Of a stretch of DNA of 64,000 nt, positions 54,567-64,000 are shown piece after piece. Within the stretch, counting starts at the first letter, position 1. Each line of letters starts with the position of its first letter. A model generated the notes under the pieces. The model saw only the letters and a list, made by a program, of their open reading frames with translations. It had not been told where the DNA came from and made no database searches. The stretch is from a virus. The stretch spans positions 253 to 64,252 of IMG/VR virus record IMGVR_UViG_3300031162_001603; one strand, given 5' to 3'. A program made the translations under genes and the position numbers.

Positions 54567-57500
54567 ATGGCAGAAGAACAAGAAAATTTCAGCATATTTG
54601 GAGGCGTTAAAGACGCAATAAATAAGAATAAAAAAAGAACCCCAATTACAACCGACCCTGGTGTTGTGCAACATAGAGGTGGTGGAGATAATCTTATTCG
54701 CCCTGGAAGTAATATTGAAAATGTACAACAGCAATTTCTAGACTGGCAGGTTAATAAAATTGCACATGACCTTTATACAAGAACTATTTATTATGATACC
54801 GATAGGATAAATGCCTACCAGGATTTTAGAGCCATGGATATGTCTCCTGAAATCGCTGCTGCTCTTAATATTATGAGAGATGAATGTATCACTAGAGGAG
54901 ATAAGGGTAAGATACTTGATATTTTTTCAGAAAACTCAAGAGTTAAGGATTTGCTTGAAGATTTATTTTACAATAGACTTGATATAGATTTTGCATTAAA
55001 ACTTTGGATTAGAGATTTATTAAAATACGGAGATTTCTTCCTTCAATTACACATTGATAAAGATGAAGGTATTTATGACGTTATGGCTCTTCCTTCAGAG
55101 GAAATTCATAGAGAAGAAGGTTATGAGGGTAGGACTGATGATGTAAGGTTTAGATGGGAAACTACTGGAGATTATTTTGAAGATTGGCAAGTTGCTCACT
55201 TTAGATTATTAGAAGATACAAGAAAGCTTCCGTATGGACGTTCTATATTAGACCCAGCAAGAAAGCTTTGGAAACAACTACAGCTCGCTGAAGATTCAAT
55301 GCTTGTATATCGTATTACAAGAGCTCCAGAAAGAAGGGTATTCTATATTGATGTTGGTAACTTAGAGCATGCTGATGTTGGACAATTCATCCAACAGTTC
55401 CAGATGCAACTTAAGAAACAACCTATTGTTGACCAGAAAACTGGTAACATAAATATGAAGTACAATCCAATGAACGTAACAGAGGATTATTTCATTCCAA
55501 TGAGAGCCGATAGGTCATCAAGAATTGAAACACTTCCAGGAGCATGTCTTGCACTTGATACAAAAATTGATTTACTTGATGGTAGAAGTCTTGAGCTTAA
55601 TGATATTATTAAAGAACATGAGGAAGGTAAAGAGTTGTGGAGTTATTCAATAAATCCAGATACAGGAAAAGTAGTTCCAGGAAAAATAACTTGGGCTGGA
55701 GTTACAAGGAAAGACGCAAAGGTTGTTAAAATTACCTTGGATAATGGAGAAACTATAACTACAACTCCTGACCATAAGTTTCCAACTAGATTTAATGGAA
55801 TTAAAGAAGCAAAAGACCTTGTTGAAGGGGAGTCTATGTGGGCTTTTAACAAAAAGTTTGAGAAAATTAAAGGAGCAGGTAAAAAGAGAAAGAGAAACAC
55901 TTATGAGATGATATATGACCATTCAGAAAATAAATGGTTATATACTCATAGAATTATCGCAAATTATTTTAGAGACTTAAACTTACATGAGGAATTTGTT
56001 CATTTAAAAGAAGCTAGAGAAGAATTGAAAAACACTATTCATCATAAAAATTTTAATAGATATGATAATAGTCCAGATAATCTATGTTTCATGAATTCAA
56101 GGGACCATTTTTATTATCATCAAGATAACATGAAAAGGTTAGAGGAATTTTTTGGTGTTGAAAAAGTTGAAGAATGGAAGGCTCTTAGGAGAGAGGGGAT
56201 AAAGGAATATTGGAATAATATATCTGAAGAAGAATTGAATAATAAAATAGAAATAGCAAAAATAAACTTCAAAAAAGGTTCAGATAAATTGCAAGAATTA
56301 CTTTTAGACCCAGAATACAAAAAGGAGTTTTACAAAAAAACCAGCAAAACTCTTAAAATAGTTAGAGGGACAGATAAGGCAAGAAACAAGCAAAGTGAAA
56401 TTACTAAAGAGCAATGGAAAGGTGAAGGTTTAAGAAATGCTATAATTGAGAAACAAACAATTAAGTATTCTGATAAAATGCTTCAATTTGTATCAAATAG
56501 ATTTAAAGATGGAATGTCGGCTGGAGAAATATTGATAGATATAAATTCAGAAAACTCTTTATTTATGTCTGAATTTGATTCTTTGAATAAAGGAAATGCT
56601 CAACTTAAAAAGATGAAAAATGGGTTTACTCATAATAACCTTGTTAAGATGATGAAATCATTTGGATATTCTAACTGGAGTGACTTCAAAAATAAAGCTG
56701 AATATTTTAATCATAAAATAGTTTCTGTAGAATTTTTATCAGACACTCAGGACACTGGAACCATTACAATTGATGGCAATGAAATGTATCATGATTATCA
56801 CAATTTTGCCCTTTCAGTTGGTGTGTTTACAAACAATTCTAATCTAGGTGATATTCAGGATATAGAGTACTTCCAGAATAAATTATTTGCTTCACTTCAA
56901 GTTCCTAAGAATTATTTAAACTACGGTGAGAGTCTTCCAGGGGGTTCAACATTATCGCAACAAGACCTTAGGTTCTCAAGAACTATTAACACAATACAAC
57001 AAGCAGTTCTTGCTGAGCTTAAAAGAATAGCAAACATTCATCTTTACTTCAATGGATTTAAAGATGAGATAGATAACTTTACGCTTACGCTTGCAAATCC
57101 ATCTACACAACAAGAATTGTTGAAGTTGGAAACAATGAAAGCACGTATTGAGGTATTTAAGGAAATGTTCTCTGCGGAGGCAACATCTCCAGTATCTTAT
57201 GTTTGGGCAATGGAAAATATTCTTGGTTTCTCTAAAAATGAAATTAAACTTATTCTTAAACAGAAAAAAGTTGAGAAGAAAATATTTGCTGAAATTGACT
57301 CATCTATTGAAATGTACAAGAAAATTGGACTTTTCAAAGAACTTGATGAGAAGTTTGAGATTGAAGGTGCTGAAGAAATGATGGCAGCTGAACAAGGCGG
57401 TGAAGAAGGTGGAGATGAAGGTGGTGACATGGGCGGAGGCGGAGGCGGCTTCGGTGGTGGAATGGACATGGGTGGAGACCTTGATATGGGAGGTGAAGAC

Positions 57501-57890
57501 TTTGGAGAAGAAGGTGGAGAAGAAGCGCCAGCTGAAGAGGCTCCTCTTGCAGAAAACAAATTCAACAAAGCTATGAACATATCTGATAGGTATACTTCTG
57601 GTTTAATTAACGAGTTGCTAGGGGCAGATGAGTCTCCTAAAAAGAATAATATTGAAGATAATGCCTTAATAAAAAGAGGGAGTCAGATGAGGCTTGAATC
57701 TGAGAAGCTAATGAAGAGGATGAATAATAGCGACATTATCAATAGAGGGGTTGGAAAATCTGTAATTCAAGAAGAAGTTAAAAAAACTAGCTCATTAATT
57801 CAAGGTTCAGAAAAACTTGGTCAAGATAGTGATAGTTTAATGAGTGAAGTTGAGAAATATTTAAGAACTAGAAAGAAAGGCGATGTTTGA
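54567..57890 (+). CDS. Portal protein (gp20-like) containing an intein
   Basis: YGRSILDPARK.WKQL.LAEDSMLVYRITRAPERRVFYIDVGN, EDYFIP, IETLPG, DIEYFQNKLF..L.VP. Confidence 0.95.
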   Translation: MAEEQENFSIFGGVKDAINKNKKRTPITTDPGVVQHRGGGDNLIRPGSNIENVQQQFLDWQVNKIAHDLYTRTIYYDTDRINAYQDFRAMDMSPEIAAALNIMRDECITRGDKGKILDIFSENSRVKDLLEDLFYNRLDIDFALKLWIRDLLKYGDFFLQLHIDKDEGIYDVMALPSEEIHREEGYEGRTDDVRFRWETTGDYFEDWQVAHFRLLEDTRKLPYGRSILDPARKLWKQLQLAEDSMLVYRITRAPERRVFYIDVGNLEHADVGQFIQQFQMQLKKQPIVDQKTGNINMKYNPMNVTEDYFIPMRADRSSRIETLPGACLALDTKIDLLDGRSLELNDIIKEHEEGKELWSYSINPDTGKVVPGKITWAGVTRKDAKVVKITLDNGETITTTPDHKFPTRFNGIKEAKDLVEGESMWAFNKKFEKIKGAGKKRKRNTYEMIYDHSENKWLYTHRIIANYFRDLNLHEEFVHLKEAREELKNTIHHKNFNRYDNSPDNLCFMNSRDHFYYHQDNMKRLEEFFGVEKVEEWKALRREGIKEYWNNISEEELNNKIEIAKINFKKGSDKLQELLLDPEYKKEFYKKTSKTLKIVRGTDKARNKQSEITKEQWKGEGLRNAIIEKQTIKYSDKMLQFVSNRFKDGMSAGEILIDINSENSLFMSEFDSLNKGNAQLKKMKNGFTHNNLVKMMKSFGYSNWSDFKNKAEYFNHKIVSVEFLSDTQDTGTITIDGNEMYHDYHNFALSVGVFTNNSNLGDIQDIEYFQNKLFASLQVPKNYLNYGESLPGGSTLSQQDLRFSRTINTIQQAVLAELKRIANIHLYFNGFKDEIDNFTLTLANPSTQQELLKLETMKARIEVFKEMFSAEATSPVSYVWAMENILGFSKNEIKLILKQKKVEKKIFAEIDSSIEMYKKIGLFKELDEKFEIEGAEEMMAAEQGGEEGGDEGGDMGGGGGGFGGGMDMGGDLDMGGEDFGEEGGEEAPAEEAPLAENKFNKAMNISDRYTSGLINELLGADESPKKNNIEDNALIKRGSQMRLESEKLMKRMNNSDIINRGVGKSVIQEEVKKTSSLIQGSEKLGQDSDSLMSEVEKYLRTRKKGDV
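55545..56837 (+). mobile_element. Contiguous 431-aa intein with HNH-type endonuclease in the portal gene
   Basis: TLPGA|CLALDT...TTPDHKF (block B)...HHKNFNRYDNSPDNL (HNH)...HNFALSVGVFTNN|SNLGD. Confidence 0.92.
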
Positions 57891-58134
57891 TAGAGACTAT
57901 TATGGTGGCTGGAACAAAAACGATGAGTATGGAGTTAGGGAGGATGTTTCAAATCTTCTTGACGAACTCGAAGGAGATTTTGATAAGAGATTGAAAAAGT
58001 TTTTTGGACCACAAAAAGTAAAAAGCGCTGCAGTAGATATCAGGCGTAGTTGTAGGATTATGATTGGAATTCTTGAAGGAATTAAAGGTAAAGTCCAAAA
58101 GACAAAAGAGGATTACGAAGGTGATTATTCTTAA
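57883..58134 (+). CDS. Small protein, possible histone H1-like (Hc1-type) nucleoid protein
   Basis: EGDFDK..KFFG..VKSAAVDIRRS resembles the Bacteroidota Hc1-like 'KFY.KGN.AAG.R.RK' pattern. Confidence 0.4.
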   Translation: MFDRDYYGGWNKNDEYGVREDVSNLLDELEGDFDKRLKKFFGPQKVKSAAVDIRRSCRIMIGILEGIKGKVQKTKEDYEGDYS

Positions 58135-58136
58135 AG

Positions 58137-58168
58137 AAAATCCACTCTAATTTAGAGTGGATTTTTTT
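58137..58168 (+). terminator. Intrinsic terminator
   Basis: aaaatccactcta-att-tagagtggatttt. Confidence 0.85.
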
Positions 58169-58171
58169 ATT

Positions 58172-58205
58172 TTTGAAACTTTATTATTAATTTATCGTAT
58201 ATTTG
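58172..58205 (+). promoter_or_regulatory. Bacteroidota sigma70-type promoter for dnaE-N
   Basis: TTTG (58172-75), 22-nt spacer, TATATTTG (58198-205). Confidence 0.6.
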
Positions 58206-58219
58206 TAAAAACAATTATA

Positions 58220-60475
58220 ATGTATATAGTATTCGATACCGAGACAACTGGAATGGCACTTAGTTTTAGTGCGCCAATAACAGATTTCAATAACTGGCCA
58301 AGAATGGTTCAGATAGCTTGGAAAGTATTTGATGCCAATGGCATAGAGACAGATTCGCAAAATTTAATAATAAAACCTAATGGCTATGTTATTCCAGATG
58401 AAGTTATAAAAATCCATAGAATTTCTAATGAAAGAGCAAAAGCTGAAGGGATACCTTTAAGGCAGGCTCTTGATTTGTTTTCAATAGCAGTTAAAAACAA
58501 TAAATATTTAATTGCACATAATATTACATTTGATGAGAATGTTGTTGGTTGTGAATTATTGAGAGAAGAGATGCACAATTACGTGCAAGATATTCAACAT
58601 ATTGATACAATGAAGTTGACTACAGAGTTTGTAGCAATTCCAAATGCAAGAGGTAGAAGTGGATTTAAGTACCCAAGTCAAACAGAGCTTCATACTAAAT
58701 TATTTGATAAAGGATTTGAGGATGCGCATGATGCACTTGCAGATGTTACAGCTCTTTCTAAGTGTTTCTTCGAACTTCAAAGAAGGAATATTCTTGGGTT
58801 TAAAGAAAAAGAGGAAATTGTTACTACAGAATCTCTCTCAGACTTTGCGCAAGAAAATCCAGCAGAAATAAATACAGAATCTCTATCAGACTTCGTACAA
58901 GAAAAGTCAATAGAGATACAAGTACAAAAAAATCAAACAAATTTAGCTCCACTTGGACTTCATACGTTTCACTCAATACTTGATGGAGCTGGTTCAGTTG
59001 ATGTATATATAGATAAGGCTCAATCCTTAGGTCACACATCAATGGCAATAACAGATAATGCAACTTTATCTGGTACATTTGAATTCTTTCAGAAGTGTAA
59101 TAAAAAAGGTATTAAGCCAGTTTTTGGTATTGAAATATTCTTGAATGATAACATTGGGTTATTTGAAGAGAAAGCATTGGAGGGAGATAATTTTAAGGTA
59201 AAGATTTTCATTAAAGACAAAATAGGATATAGCAATCTTAATCACTTGTTGTATCTTGCAAATACAGAAGGTTACTTTAAAAAAGAGGGTAGGATAACTA
59301 CTGAGTGGCTTTTAAAGTATAAAGAAGGGCTTATCGTGTCTACTTCAGGATTGGATAGCAAATTAGCGAGTATGGCTCTTAGAGGGCGTGAAAAAGAAGC
59401 TGAGAACTATATAAACATGCTTAGGACTGAATTCGGAGAAGATTTGATAATAGAATTCAAATTTAGTAGATTCCCAACTCAAAAACAATACAATAATTTC
59501 CTTATTAAGATGATGAGGAAGTACAACATAATGCCTGTTGTTAGTAATGATACGTATTATCCAGAAAAAGATGATTCAATAATTCAAGATATAGTTACAT
59601 CAATAAAGCAACATAGGCCTATAGATAAATGTTTTCTTAAAGAGAATAGGGAGCTTTGGTATTTTGGTAGTGAAGATTATAGGACAATGAACGTTAGGCA
59701 TAACTTCAATTATCCAGATAATTTTCTTGAACTTTGTATGGCAAATACTTTAAAGGTTGCTGACAAGTGTAATTTTGAATTTGAAACAGGTGAGGAGAAG
59801 TATCCGAGATATGAGCCAACACAAGATATAGTTGATTATTTTAAGACTGATAAGCCAGATGAAATAATCGTAAAACTTGCATTTGCTAAGCTAAAGCAAA
59901 AGATAAATAAGTATAAAGAAAATGGCATAGTCAATATGACTGATGAAAAAGTTAAAGAATATGTTGACCGACTTAATTATGAGTTAAAAGTAATTGAATC
60001 AAAGAAGATGCTTGATTACTTTCTTGTAAACTGGGAGATAGTAAATTATTATAGAGGAACTGGTCATGACATCGGGCCTGCTAGGGGAAGCGCTGCTGGA
60101 AGTTTGCTCTCTTATTGCCTCGACATTACTAAAATTGACCCGATAAGGTTTGACCTTTATTTTGAGCGTTTTCTAAATCCAGAGAGAAATTGTCTAACAA
60201 CAAGTTGTAATGTTATGCTTAAAGATGGTTCTTATAAAAACATAGTTGATGTTGAAGTTGGTGACCCAGTTCAGACTGAACATGGACTTGGAACCCTGGT
60301 TCAGAAGCATGAAAGAGAATTGAAGGAGGGAGAAAATGTTTTTGAGATAGAAAGCGAAGATGGCGCAAAAATTCAATTAACAGGTTGTCATATTGTTCCT
60401 GTGTTTAGGGGTGGGGAAAGAATCGAGGTTCGTGTTGATGAAATTATAGAAACAGACCAATTGTTTGTATTTTAA
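58220..60475 (+). CDS. dnaE: DNA polymerase III alpha, N-terminal half (DEDDh exonuclease, PHP, start of palm) fused to N-intein
   Basis: FDTETTG/AHNITFD/HDALADV; HTFHSILDG..AITD; GPARGSAAGSLLSYCLDITKIDP..YFERFLNPERN|CLTT. Confidence 0.93.
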   Translation: MYIVFDTETTGMALSFSAPITDFNNWPRMVQIAWKVFDANGIETDSQNLIIKPNGYVIPDEVIKIHRISNERAKAEGIPLRQALDLFSIAVKNNKYLIAHNITFDENVVGCELLREEMHNYVQDIQHIDTMKLTTEFVAIPNARGRSGFKYPSQTELHTKLFDKGFEDAHDALADVTALSKCFFELQRRNILGFKEKEEIVTTESLSDFAQENPAEINTESLSDFVQEKSIEIQVQKNQTNLAPLGLHTFHSILDGAGSVDVYIDKAQSLGHTSMAITDNATLSGTFEFFQKCNKKGIKPVFGIEIFLNDNIGLFEEKALEGDNFKVKIFIKDKIGYSNLNHLLYLANTEGYFKKEGRITTEWLLKYKEGLIVSTSGLDSKLASMALRGREKEAENYINMLRTEFGEDLIIEFKFSRFPTQKQYNNFLIKMMRKYNIMPVVSNDTYYPEKDDSIIQDIVTSIKQHRPIDKCFLKENRELWYFGSEDYRTMNVRHNFNYPDNFLELCMANTLKVADKCNFEFETGEEKYPRYEPTQDIVDYFKTDKPDEIIVKLAFAKLKQKINKYKENGIVNMTDEKVKEYVDRLNYELKVIESKKMLDYFLVNWEIVNYYRGTGHDIGPARGSAAGSLLSYCLDITKIDPIRFDLYFERFLNPERNCLTTSCNVMLKDGSYKNIVDVEVGDPVQTEHGLGTLVQKHERELKEGENVFEIESEDGAKIQLTGCHIVPVFRGGERIEVRVDEIIETDQLFVF
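60191..60472 (+). mobile_element. Split intein N-fragment (94 aa)
   Basis: CLTTSCNVML block A, LTGCHIV block B (TxxH), then stop. Confidence 0.9.
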
Positions 60476-60514
60476 AAGTTTTTATCTATATTTATAGATA
60501 TAGATTTTATAGTT

Positions 60515-61594
60515 ATGAAAAAAGAAGAATTATTAAATATTGAATTTGATGGACAAAGCGATTTGATTGCTGGTTTGTGTGATTTTTTTGAATTTAAGAA
60601 AGCAAGCAATAGTGAGAAAGAAAATTGGCCATATAATAATAAGCTAATCGTTTCTATTGATAATATAATTGGAAAGGAGTTATATAATAGAGGAGAGTTT
60701 ATTGGAATTGTTGAAGATTGTTATTTTGGAAAAGGGCCAAGAGGGCATAGTGCTGTTTTAATCAAATCTAAAGAGCAGGAATATTCTTTGACAGAATCTA
60801 AAGTTAAAGTATATAATAAATTTTCGGAAGAAGAAGAGTTAATTGACCTACACCCATCAAGAAAGGGAGTTAAGTTTTGGTCAAATGGACACATATTATC
60901 TGAAAAACACTATAAGTCCCTTTACTATAAAACAAGGGAATATAGAAGTCAATATGAAAAAACTTTGAATGAAAACTTAGGAACAACTGGCCTAACTGCG
61001 CCAATACAATCAAAGCAGATTAAAGATAAGATTTCTAATACAATGGAGGATAGGTATGGTGTTAATTGGTTTTTAGAAAGAGGTAGTCATTATTCCGCTG
61101 TAACAATGACAATGCAAGATAAGTTTGGAGTAGATAATTTATTTTATTCATATGAATGGCAATTACAGAATTCTAAAAATGTAAATAAAAATCTTGGAGA
61201 ATCTTCTAAATTAGAAAGAGAGATTATATCAGAATTAGAAGAGGTAGGGTTAAGTAAGTCTTTTCATTATAATTCTGATAGTGGTCAAAAAATAATAGTT
61301 GTAAATAAAAGAAAGTTCTACAAGCTTGATTATTATAATGAAGAAAGTAATGTGGTTATTGAGATAATGGGAGACTATTGGCATTGTAATCCAAATATTT
61401 ATAGTCATGATTTTTATCATAAAAATAAGAAAAAATTAGCCTCAAAAATTTGGATAGATGATAGAAAAAGGAAAAATGAAATAATTAATATCATTAATTG
61501 TAGTTATATAGAGGTATGGGAGAGTGATTGGAAAAACAATAAGGAAAATGTGTTAAAATATATAAAAAGTCAAATAGAAGCAAATAAATTATGA
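60515..61594 (+). CDS. Free-standing Vsr/DUF559-like homing endonuclease between the split dnaE halves
   Basis: RYGVNW/KFGVDN repeats, LDYYNEESNVVIEIMGDYWHCNP, IWIDDRKR, IEVWESDW; late motif at 60491. Confidence 0.8.
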   Translation: MKKEELLNIEFDGQSDLIAGLCDFFEFKKASNSEKENWPYNNKLIVSIDNIIGKELYNRGEFIGIVEDCYFGKGPRGHSAVLIKSKEQEYSLTESKVKVYNKFSEEEELIDLHPSRKGVKFWSNGHILSEKHYKSLYYKTREYRSQYEKTLNENLGTTGLTAPIQSKQIKDKISNTMEDRYGVNWFLERGSHYSAVTMTMQDKFGVDNLFYSYEWQLQNSKNVNKNLGESSKLEREIISELEEVGLSKSFHYNSDSGQKIIVVNKRKFYKLDYYNEESNVVIEIMGDYWHCNPNIYSHDFYHKNKKKLASKIWIDDRKRKNEIINIINCSYIEVWESDWKNNKENVLKYIKSQIEANKL

Positions 61595-61743
61595 AGCTAT
61601 CAAAAATTAAATCAATAAATAAAATTGAATACAACAATAGAGTTTATGACCTATCTTTTGATAAAGATAATCTTTTCTTCTGCTCAAGTAATTCTTTAGA
61701 TAAATGCTGTAACTCATTGATTTCCAGTGTTTTAATACACAAT
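61591..61743 (+). mobile_element. Split intein C-fragment (51 aa)
   Basis: MKLSKIKSI...RVYDLSFD..NLFF...VLIHN|S. Confidence 0.9.
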
Positions 61744-63921
61744 TCTCCTCCCGATATTGACATTGACTTTATGAATGGGACTGATGATATAACTGATAAT
61801 TTTTTATATGAGAAGTATGGAAAAGAGCGTGTAATGTCTGTTGGTACTTTCGGTACTTTTTCTGAAAAGAATACAATTAAAGATGTTGTTCGAGCATATC
61901 AAGGAAAAGAAGCTACTGGATTTGGTTCTGATGTTTTTGAGCTTACCAAAGAGATGCCAGACTTTTTAAAGTATAACGACACTCTTAGGCATTGGTTTGA
62001 AACATGGCCAGATAAGCCAGAGTGTACTCCAAGGGTTAGAAATTGGATTAGAGACCCAAGGAACAAGGAAATGATTGAAGTAGCTTTAAAGTTACATGGC
62101 AATATTAGGGGAGTTGGTCAGCATGCAGCTGGAGTTGTAATTACTCCAGGTCCATCTTGGGATTATGTTCCAACAAACGTTATTGCATCTAATGGAAATG
62201 TTGTATCAGCATTTCAAGAGGCTGATAAGTCAGGTAAGGATTTATCTGCTATTGGTATTTTGAAGTTAGATAGGTTGAAATTAATGACTTTGAATGTAAT
62301 CAAGGAAACAATTGAAATTGTAAAAACAACAAAAGGAGAGGATATAACTGGTAAAGTGGATTATGTTGACCTTGAAGATGAGAATCTTTTTATTGAACTT
62401 AGGCTTGGATTAAATCACGGTATATTTCAATTTGAGAGTAGTGGGATGAATAATCTTATTAGAGGAATGCAGGTTGAGAAATTTGAAGAACTTGTTGCTT
62501 GTAATGCATTGTATAGGCCAGGTCCAATGGGTATTGGAGCTCACGAAGAGTTTATAGCGAATAAGTTTAATCCAGAGAAGATTAACTTGGTTCATCCAGC
62601 TCTTGAACCTATATTAAGAGAAACGAATGGAGTACTTGTATTTCAGGAACAGCTTATGTTTATCGCTGATAGGATTGGTGGAATGGGTCTTGGTAAGGGA
62701 GATAATCTCCGTAGGTACATGGATAAGGCAAGTAAGATTATTGCCAGACATTCTGCAGGAGAAAAGCTAACAGAGAGTGAATTAAATAATCCAAACTGGA
62801 AAGGTTTTCAAGAGTACTGGAATATGTTCCTTGATGGAGCGGCTGCTCAAGGGTATGATAAAAGCGAGGTTGACAAGATTAAAGATTGGGTAATTCAGTA
62901 TCTTGGATATTCGTTCAACAAGAGTCACAGTCTGAGTTACAGTTACTTAGCTATGCAAACCCTGTATTTAAAGCATTATTATCCTACTGAATTTTATACT
63001 GCTTTATTGAATCATCCAAAGTCTGGGCCAAAAGAGAAACAGCAGATTTGGATTGCCTCAGCAATTGCATCTGCAATGTCAAAAGGTATTGTTATAAAGA
63101 GGCCTTCAAGAAAGTCTGGATGGGAATGGACAATGACAGGAGGCCGTGAAATATCTATGGGATTTTCTGGAATTAATGGATTTGGTGAAATTGCATATGA
63201 AGAGATGTGTTCTCTTGTTAATGGAGTCCAAGTGAAAGAGGGGGAAGATAAGAAGACTCTTGAGACAATAAGTATGAGTGTGTTTTTAAGGCTTCCATTT
63301 AGTAAGTTTAACAAGACAGCGTTTACCGCTTGTCTAAAGGCTGGCGTGTTTGATGATTGGGGAGATTCAAGAGAGCAGCTTATTGCTATTAAGGCGAAGA
63401 AAAAGAAGAAGAAAGAGATAGCTAATCAAACTATTTTGTTTGATATGAATGACCCTTCTTTTGATATACCAATAAAGAGTGATATTAAAAAGTTCCCTCC
63501 GACAACGGAAACAGAAAAGAGAGTGGACTTTATAGAAGTTTGTAATTTTGACCTTGAAAAGATTAAGTACATACTTGAGATAAAGAAAGATGTAAATGAA
63601 AGAGCTAAGAGAGATAAGATAGTAGAAACAATAGTTAATTTCGATGACGATGATTTTTATATATTTGTTGTTGAGTCATTTAAAATGATTCAAGGAAGAA
63701 CTGGAAAAGAATACTTAACAATGAAGGTTGGGGATGGGATTAGTTATTCTACTCTTAGAGCATTTGACCCTACTGCAAAAGAATTATATCCTTTACTTCA
63801 AGCTAATGGTATTTATGTAGCAGAATTTGAGAAAAACAATAAAGGATATATAAACTTCAAGAGAGGAACGAGAATCGTAAGAGTTGATAAAGACATGAGT
63901 AAAAAAGAGATAAATGAGTAA
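61591..63921 (+). CDS. dnaE: DNA polymerase III alpha, C-terminal half preceded by C-intein
   Basis: HN|SPPDIDIDF catalytic aspartates, GQHAAGVVI, ILKLDRLKL, GIFQFES, ALYRPGP, TNGVLVFQEQLM, YSFNKSHS..Y, YPTEFY. Confidence 0.93.
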   Translation: MKLSKIKSINKIEYNNRVYDLSFDKDNLFFCSSNSLDKCCNSLISSVLIHNSPPDIDIDFMNGTDDITDNFLYEKYGKERVMSVGTFGTFSEKNTIKDVVRAYQGKEATGFGSDVFELTKEMPDFLKYNDTLRHWFETWPDKPECTPRVRNWIRDPRNKEMIEVALKLHGNIRGVGQHAAGVVITPGPSWDYVPTNVIASNGNVVSAFQEADKSGKDLSAIGILKLDRLKLMTLNVIKETIEIVKTTKGEDITGKVDYVDLEDENLFIELRLGLNHGIFQFESSGMNNLIRGMQVEKFEELVACNALYRPGPMGIGAHEEFIANKFNPEKINLVHPALEPILRETNGVLVFQEQLMFIADRIGGMGLGKGDNLRRYMDKASKIIARHSAGEKLTESELNNPNWKGFQEYWNMFLDGAAAQGYDKSEVDKIKDWVIQYLGYSFNKSHSLSYSYLAMQTLYLKHYYPTEFYTALLNHPKSGPKEKQQIWIASAIASAMSKGIVIKRPSRKSGWEWTMTGGREISMGFSGINGFGEIAYEEMCSLVNGVQVKEGEDKKTLETISMSVFLRLPFSKFNKTAFTACLKAGVFDDWGDSREQLIAIKAKKKKKKEIANQTILFDMNDPSFDIPIKSDIKKFPPTTETEKRVDFIEVCNFDLEKIKYILEIKKDVNERAKRDKIVETIVNFDDDDFYIFVVESFKMIQGRTGKEYLTMKVGDGISYSTLRAFDPTAKELYPLLQANGIYVAEFEKNNKGYINFKRGTRIVRVDKDMSKKEINE

Positions 63922-64000
63922 AAAAAATAAAGAAAAGTTGTTTCATATTAAATATGTGACGGAAGAAGATAGAAAAAGAGAGTTAAAAGAAGCGATTTCA
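63914..64000 (+). CDS. Start of a gene running off the right edge (MSKKNKEKLFHIKYVTEEDRK...)
   Basis: Manual translation; ATG overlaps the dnaE-C stop region and the frame stays open to the window end. Confidence 0.5.
   Translation, partial: MSKKNKEKLFHIKYVTEEDRKRELKEAIS

Follow-up and report, generated by a model that had tools for sequence, protein, structure and literature searches.

How can a phage obtain a replicative DNA polymerase from a dnaE gene that is broken into two open reading frames (ORFs), and what occupies the break? This question is raised by a 64,000-nucleotide (nt) stretch of viral DNA (positions 253 to 64,252 of IMG/VR record IMGVR_UViG_3300031162_001603; the whole stretch is called the window below), in which the two parts of dnaE, dnaE-N and dnaE-C, stand on either side of an endonuclease gene and carry the two halves of an intein at the break. 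We consider it very probable that dnaE is here a fractured gene, interrupted by a selfish cassette of split intein and endonuclease, with trans-splicing of the protein and homing of the cassette as inferred activities. The anatomy of the locus, its presence/absence polymorphism among related phages and the conservation of the splicing residues were observed directly, and the folds of the N-terminal intein half and of the nuclease domain were seen in structural models. The window makes up nearly all of a 64.8-kb viral record from a marine metagenome and has a GC content of ~32%; CheckV rates the contig as 24% complete, which makes it a fragment of a jumbo phage.

Three ORFs on the + strand lie head to tail at 58220-63921. 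The first, dnaE-N (58220-60475, 751 amino acids (aa)), contains DnaQ-like exonuclease and PHP domains and positions 4-99 of the Pfam model DNA_pol3_alpha. Its start was set at ATG 58220 instead of the upstream GTG 58157 of the ORF list, because MYIVFDTETTG is the conserved start among relatives. The N-extein ends in ...FERFLNPERN with residue N657 (60190) and is followed by Cys1 (codon 60191-60193) of the N-terminal intein half (IntN), which runs for 94 aa to 60472 and is closed by a TAA stop at 60473-60475. The third ORF, dnaE-C (61591-63921, 776 aa), begins with the C-terminal intein half (IntC, 51 aa) and continues with the C-extein, in which Ser+1 at 61744 is followed by PPDIDIDF; it covers DNA_pol3_alpha 99-259, the finger domain and HhH (HHH_6). 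The ATG of dnaE-C shares the letters ATGA with the TGA stop of the endonuclease gene, a 4-base-pair (bp) overlap. When checked on the sequence, the ORFs, junctions and coordinates of the first-pass annotation all proved correct, and the overlap that it had reported is real. The features of the locus are as follows.

58134-58168, + strand: terminator-like hairpin closing the upstream gene (16-pair stem, then a T-run)
58172-58205, + strand: candidate host-RNA-polymerase promoter of dnaE-N, TTTG, 22 nt, TATATTTG (conservation in relatives)
58220-60190, + strand: dnaE N-extein, 657 aa, with DnaQ-like 3'-5' exonuclease, PHP and first part of the Pol III alpha palm (Pfam RNase_T, PHP, DNA_pol3_alpha; NCBIfam DnaE)
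60191-60475, + strand: IntN, 94 aa and stop, with Cys1 and block B T64-G-C-H67 (Pfam Hint, TIGR01445, AlphaFold2 (AF2) model)
60475-60508, + strand: spacer hairpin with TATTTAT at the apex (folding against 200 shuffles)
60515-61594, + strand: predicted free-standing homing endonuclease, 359 aa (PHROG families, conserved motifs, AF2 fold comparison)
61591-61743, + strand: IntC, 51 aa, with block F VYDLSF and block G ...VLIHN (Pfam Intein_splicing 120-148)
61744-63921, + strand: dnaE C-extein, 725 aa and stop, with Ser+1, PDIDIDF, remaining palm, fingers and HhH (Pfam; NCBIfam DnaE 400-1048)

The NCBIfam model of E. coli-type DnaE is matched at positions 6-398 by the first ORF and at 400-1048 by the third. 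Together with the Pfam coverage, this identifies the two ORFs as parts of one gene. In uninterrupted orthologues the N- and C-parts join exactly at the break of the window, which sits 2-3 residues ahead of the PDxDxDF catalytic aspartates.

Both sequences at the break have the marks of an intein. IntN contains the block B motif LTGCH (T64, H67) and IntC has a basic N-terminal stretch and ends in VLIHN (H50-N51). The Pfam model Hint matched IntN with an E value of 6.8e-6 (26.3 bits, curated cut-off 29.7), the TIGR01445 alignment begins exactly at Cys1 (15.9 bits, cut-off 24.5), and positions 120-148 of Intein_splicing matched 7 of 7 IntC alleles (18.1 bits, cut-off 35.8). Cys1, T64 and H67 are invariant in 11 IntN sequences that are 52-88% identical to that of the window, and D20, H50, N51 and Ser+1 are invariant in 7 IntC sequences; identities across the aligned IntN and IntC sequences range from 43 to 88%. 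All 23 further protein clusters of IntC-bearing dnaE-C end in HN|S, whereas the same +1 position in 38 uninterrupted alleles is occupied by S (23), G (11), A (2) or T (2), so that the +1 nucleophile is constrained only where the intein is present. Natural split inteins typically have an acidic IntN and a basic IntC; here the net charge is -10 for IntN and +3 for the first 25 residues of IntC.

The AlphaFold model of IntN (predicted local distance difference test score (pLDDT) 76) was searched with Foldseek, and the top 12 rows were all Hint or intein structures (prob 0.9-1.0, with E values of only 7.5e-3 to 0.3), the best being hedgehog Hint and the gp41-1, MchDnaB-1, Msm DnaB and Npu DnaE inteins. 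As modelled, IntN has the HINT fold, and by its sequence the dnaE split intein is a divergent member of the class 1 inteins (HINT superfamily). The split intein proposed earlier around the dnaE break is thus supported by the invariant splicing residues and the HINT-like model.

The two halves could have lost splicing and only clamp the two polymerase pieces to each other without a covalent bond, an arrangement like that of the fragmented NrdA of phage Aeh1. Non-covalent assembly of endonuclease-fractured genes is documented (PMC3045599), and sub-threshold intein-model scores would fit decayed halves. Both halves are full length (94 and 51 aa), their nucleophiles and catalytic residues are invariant across alleles down to ~45% identity, and Ser+1 is fixed only in occupied alleles. 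Since a pure clamp would leave Cys1, Asn51 and Ser+1 unconstrained, we regard this explanation as quite unlikely and retain a split intein that would be competent for splicing.

In an exhaustive search, 12 of 12 IntN homologues with E <1e-13 had the match at the extreme C-terminus, and these homologues are therefore split too. No contiguous intein was found at the PERN|S site by this search or by the dnaE-C search; the same searches returned contiguous mini-inteins only at the neighbouring GPGRG|S site. IntC carries a variable insert of 10-20 residues between blocks F and G. Neither IntN nor IntC gave a sequence match to gp41-1, Npu or other solved split inteins, and in structural alignments of the IntN model the identity to solved inteins was 22-23%. 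Because of this lack of sequence match to any solved split intein, orthogonality to the known ones is plausible. IntN and the endonuclease are in one frame with a single TAA between them in the window and in the related locus L002 and not in L003; a read-through fusion of the two was considered and rejected, the shared frame being judged a coincidence.

The gene between the intein halves was examined by sequence and by structure. Its Pfam match is weak (DUF7487) and its PHROG matches are homing-endonuclease families. Of the ninety homologues found, ~38 are full-length relatives with 31-80% identity, whose genes lie on large phage contigs. The conserved motifs are D272, E283-x-x-G-D-Y-W-H290 and W335-E-x-D; in an alignment of 30 homologues D272, G286, W289 and H290 never vary, and the conservation of E283 is at least 90%. 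The Vsr-like and EDxHD motifs were defined by Dassa et al. (PMC2677866) and Taylor et al. (PMC3239194). By motif alignment, with a mapping to Vsr and I-Bth0305I numbering that is our own and follows the published motif definitions, the residues of the composite EDxHD motif are E234, D272, E283, H290 and D316, where E283 is the family-specific Glu at the position of Vsr Phe62 and Y288-W289 stand at the positions of Vsr F67-W68.

PDB sequence and profile searches with the endonuclease found neither Vsr nor I-Bth0305I; these were found by fold comparison alone. In the AlphaFold model (pLDDT 86), residues 229-359 aligned with Vsr 1cw0_A (Z 11.8, root-mean-square deviation 2.9, 114 residues aligned), I-Bth0305I 3r3p_A (Z 11.3, 97/97 aligned) and 1vsr (Z 10.8). 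The C-terminal domain, as modelled, has the Vsr/EDxHD nuclease fold, and the description of the gene as a Vsr-like free-standing endonuclease is borne out by these fold scores and by the motif residues. Residues 1-228 (60515-61200) were confidently modelled as a small beta-barrel (55-111) followed by helical repeats of the DUF7487 type. A structure search with this N-terminal half gave no clear match, the best being Tudor/KOW-like barrels at Z ~4-5. Judging from the model, it is probably the DNA-binding part, and probably a new DNA-binding module for EDxHD endonucleases. The locus had no blastn match in GenBank phages, and tblastn with the endonuclease returned distant C-terminal matches only, in Lak megaphages.

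To place the break among relatives, we used 39 viral-contig loci with relatives of the C-extein and 6 loci fetched through the endonuclease. The IntN-endonuclease-IntC layout occurs at the same residue in 7 divergent allele types (window, L002-type, L029, L030-type, L003-type, L005-type and L041), and this recurrence, together with the profile break at 398/400, supports the fractured-gene layout proposed in the first-pass annotation. At ~25 loci dnaE is uninterrupted exactly at N|S, with N- and C-extein matches that abut to the base. Among these is the closest relative, L023 (90-92% extein identity). Otherwise intact, the dnaE of L023 has a TAG at L023:6301-6303 in place of the Trp codon (TGG) that is conserved in the window and others, possibly through a sequencing error, possibly as a genuine nonsense variant. 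On the extein tree occupancy changes 7 times, at least 5 of these changes being forced by well-supported branches, and occupied loci cluster no more closely than they do when the labels are shuffled.

A clean deletion of 1011 bp is all that separates L038 from L005 (L038:5470-5860; L005:4673-6070). Lost with it are the last part of a 110-aa ORF and most of the endonuclease, whereas IntN and IntC are the same as in L005. With most of the endonuclease deleted and the intein halves unchanged, the endonuclease can be dispensed with and the intein is required; L038 is the endonuclease-loss stage of the model of Dassa et al. (PMC2677866). An extra ORF of ~110-140 aa lies between IntN and the endonuclease at L005:4672-5004 and L030:4350-4770.

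The same comparison bears on the suspicion that the break is an assembly error or a pseudogene, or that the halves are joined at the RNA level by an endonuclease-bearing group I intron. The window is a single metagenomic contig, and Vsr-like endonucleases are also found in group I introns (PMC2677866). Dozens of contigs from independent samples and assemblers have the same architecture, which speaks against an assembly error, and the stretch is present at full word share in the index of sequencing runs, though in what may be the source sample. No Rfam intron was found at E <=1 in 57800-64000, and Hint motifs, in frame, border the break on both sides precisely at the extein boundaries. An artefact or RNA-level joining is therefore extremely improbable, and a break bridged at the protein level is preferred.

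The expression of the three ORFs was considered next to their layout. The spacer between IntN and the endonuclease is 39 nt long, and its hairpin (60475-60508), which ends 6 nt short of the endonuclease ATG, has a folding free energy (dG) of -8.7 kcal/mol (z -2.98), a stability that 1 of 200 shuffles reached. A hairpin precedes the endonuclease in 5 of 6 alleles and is absent in L005; where an extra ORF intervenes (L005 and L030 types), a hairpin/TATTTAT-like element still adjoins the endonuclease. In the window TATTTAT is located at the hairpin apex (60489-60495), 26 nt 5' of the endonuclease ATG. The same motif lies within 60 nt upstream of 18 of the 60 window genes, mostly structural ones, at about -23, compared with 2 of 60 for TATAAATA, so that the 'late motif' reported before the endonuclease is a reasonable call. 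Along 15600-54600, TATTTAT(A/T) stands on the sense strand ~20-30 nt before most structural-gene starts. In this clade of phages the motif may act as a late promoter.

The 'host-type promoter' claimed for dnaE-N stood in part. The stretch between the strong terminator of the preceding gene and dnaE-N has no good sigma-70 match, and in a sigma-70 scan sites were no more numerous than in shuffles; what holds is a conserved element, TTTG-N22-TATATTTG. Upstream of dnaE-N, TTTG-N20-TAnnTTTG is conserved in 8 relatives (within the 95 nt before dnaE-N in L002, L003, L009, L012, L014, L015, L032 and L034), with N22 in the window and L029 and with diverging spacer sequences. Over the whole window TAnnTTTG shows no enrichment (104 occurrences, 95 expected); the promoter call follows from conservation across relatives only. 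We take TTTG-N20/22-TAnnTTTG to be the Bacteroidota -33/-7 promoter consensus; the element and the lack of Shine-Dalgarno sequences hint at a Bacteroidota host. No element of this kind was found close to dnaE-C, and read-through is therefore the simplest expression route for dnaE-C.

These signals could also be read as a regulatory split, in which the hairpin would end early transcripts and dnaE-C would be expressed only from the late motif, so that the polymerase is gated in time. The hairpin with a U-run after dnaE-N, the TATTTAT before many structural genes and the lack of a promoter-like element close to dnaE-C would all suit such a switch. It is opposed by the need for a replicative polymerase ahead of late genes, by the uninterrupted dnaE that close relatives use, and by L005 and L038, which keep the split layout without the hairpin and without most of the endonuclease, respectively; a stem without G-C pairs is also a poor terminator. 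Gating of the polymerase by expression of both halves, as suggested earlier, thus found no support: the ORFs are on one strand and no separate promoter of dnaE-C was found. The uninterrupted gene in relatives and the loss of the endonuclease with retention of the intein in L038 are better explained by a selfish element that the phage tolerates than by a device for regulation, and we consider the regulatory split very unlikely.

For the selfish cassette we propose the following course. The cassette, made of IntN, a candidate regulatory hairpin, a Vsr/EDxHD endonuclease and IntC, occupies the replicative polymerase gene dnaE. The 751- and 776-aa polypeptides would associate by way of the acidic IntN and the basic beginning of IntC, giving a HINT domain. 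Trans-splicing of the class 1 type would then proceed by a Cys1 thioester, attack by Ser+1 and cyclisation of Asn51, giving a 1382-aa exonuclease-PHP-Pol III alpha protein with the junction ...FLNPERN-SPPDIDIDF. When related phages co-infect a cell, the endonuclease may cut their intein-less dnaE at this junction or close to it, and the cassette would be copied in full during repair. On the model of Aeh1 mobE, transcripts that read through from the dnaE-N promoter would keep the full hairpin directly ahead of the endonuclease start, which would damp translation of the endonuclease, and transcripts starting at the TATTTAT in the apex would lose the 5' arm of the hairpin and allow late expression of the endonuclease.

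Several points weigh against this proposal. Every intein-model match to either half falls under the curated thresholds, and the block F His of some alleles (DHLF) is Asn in the window (DNLF). The identities of intein and endonuclease roughly track those of the exteins, and a co-conversion tract, sought in 60-nt bins around the junction, was not visible; given this parallel divergence and the lack of a tract, recent homing is not shown. Repeated precise loss reads the scattered occupancy equally well as homing. The occupancy data show a long-standing insertion polymorphism, in which repeated homing and repeated exact loss look alike. AT-rich and with a U-run behind it, the spacer hairpin may be a weak terminator instead, and the regulatory role given to it is drawn from analogy.

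Fractured DnaE loci of this layout are already known, and the present locus adds one more example. Dassa, London, Stoddard, Schueler-Furman and Pietrokovski (2009, NAR 37:2560; PMC2677866) described 26 fractured loci from ocean metagenomes, including 3 fractured DnaE loci, each at a non-cyanobacterial site. Half of their loci had Vsr-like endonucleases; upstream hairpins were present in 15 of 16, late-promoter motifs in ten and endonuclease/IntC overlaps in 15. The novelty suggested in the first-pass annotation was thus overstated, since three fractured DnaE loci with Vsr-like endonucleases were in that data set. The window resembles those loci in the hairpin with a late-promoter-like motif before the endonuclease, in the overlap of the endonuclease 3' end with the downstream ORF, in the phage origin and marine or aquatic environment, and in the existence of an endonuclease-less variant (their gp41-7; here L038). 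It differs in the length of the overlap (4 bp against the reported 6-69 bp), in the hairpin motif (TATTTAT, theirs TATAAATA) and in its known setting, a contig of a jumbo T4-like phage for which many alleles with and without the cassette can be compared. For their DnaE loci the likeness holds for the layout as published, which the present locus follows in every respect. A literature search found no description of this particular site.

Among single inteins, gp41-1 (6QAZ/6RIZ), NrdJ-1 and IMPDH-1, which come from the same 2009 data set (PMC2677866), share with the window's intein Cys1 and Ser+1, halves of ~90 and 40-50 aa, an acidic IntN and a basic IntC. The HINT fold is also shared with gp41-1, 6riz being among the top structural matches of the IntN model. 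The difference from this group lies in the lack of a sequence-level match (22-23% identity structurally) and in the 10-20-residue insert of window-type IntC. The cyanobacterial Ssp and Npu DnaE inteins are likewise naturally split and reside in the same host protein, an essential polymerase that needs trans-splicing. Their site lies ~390 residues downstream, in the fingers (GYxFNKSH), as located with PRK07373 and PRK09532; PRK07373 matches only from dnaE-C residue 441, in agreement with the earlier statement that the two sites differ. Their halves are in separate loci in most genomes, the +1 residue is Cys, and no sequence match was found between the Npu chains and the halves of the window.

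The window's endonuclease has the C-terminal nuclease fold and the aligned motif residues in common with E. coli Vsr (1CW0) and with I-Bth0305I (PMC3239194; 3R3P), after which the EDxHD homing endonucleases are modelled as a family. I-Bth0305I has an N-terminal NUMOD/helix-turn-helix part where the window's protein has a beta-barrel and DUF7487 repeats, and it is encoded inside a group I intron, whereas the window's gene is free-standing within an intein. In phage Aeh1 (nrdA-a/mobE/nrdA-b; Gibb and Edgell, cited in PMC2677866), a free-standing endonuclease also splits an essential phage gene, and a hairpin with a late promoter stands before its start. The Aeh1 gene has no intein and its halves join non-covalently, whereas the window has a complete split intein.

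The locus leaves the general understanding of biology unchanged. It is a clean, well-populated example of the fractured-gene stage in the evolution of inteins and endonucleases, and one phage clade holds occupied, empty and endonuclease-deleted alleles at PERN|S, which makes the clade material for testing the gene-breaking model of Dassa et al. and the homing cycle. What protein engineering could gain from it is a Cys1/Ser+1 split intein, with ERN/SPP as native flanks, that is sequence-unrelated to the current toolbox; in relatives it is accompanied by two further split inteins, which would already have to be mutually orthogonal in vivo.

Further inteins were seen in the dnaE genes of related phages. 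In L029 (L029:2128-9012) dnaE is distributed over four ORFs (701, 164, 535 and 362 aa), and a different split intein lies at each of the three joints, GPARG|S, PERN|S (the site of the window) and YSFNK|S. The 164-aa piece consists of an IntC, a 34-residue extein and an IntN, and the gaps contain small or degraded ORFs in place of the expected full endonuclease. The dnaE proteins P0190 and P0176 have a contiguous mini-intein at GPGRG|S (CF.P.SR.KM...VHN|SAAGS), and in both the C-terminus is an IntN that belongs to the SFNK|S site. The GPGRG|S site is split in L029 and in ~12 protein clusters. With contiguous and split forms at GPGRG|S, both stages of the Dassa gene-breaking model exist there.

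It is a tentative proposal, to which we give a little less than an even chance, that the intein of the window represents a new split-intein family, efficient and orthogonal to gp41-1, Npu DnaE and NrdJ-1, and is one of three that coexist in L029-like dnaE. If this is true, an L029-type polymerase would be stitched from four polypeptides, including a middle extein of ~34 residues. The three inteins would then be a natural, mutually orthogonal set for the ordered assembly of a protein from four pieces.

The T4-type portal gene just 5' of the dnaE locus, identified by a Pfam scan, also carries an intein. It is contiguous, ~431 aa long (55545-56837), with an HNH motif (Pfam Intein_splicing, E 1.2e-10), and comparison of it with the dnaE intein halves by hhalign gave no significant match. 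The portal of the close relative L002 is 671 aa long and without an intein, and the portal of L005 has two intein matches.

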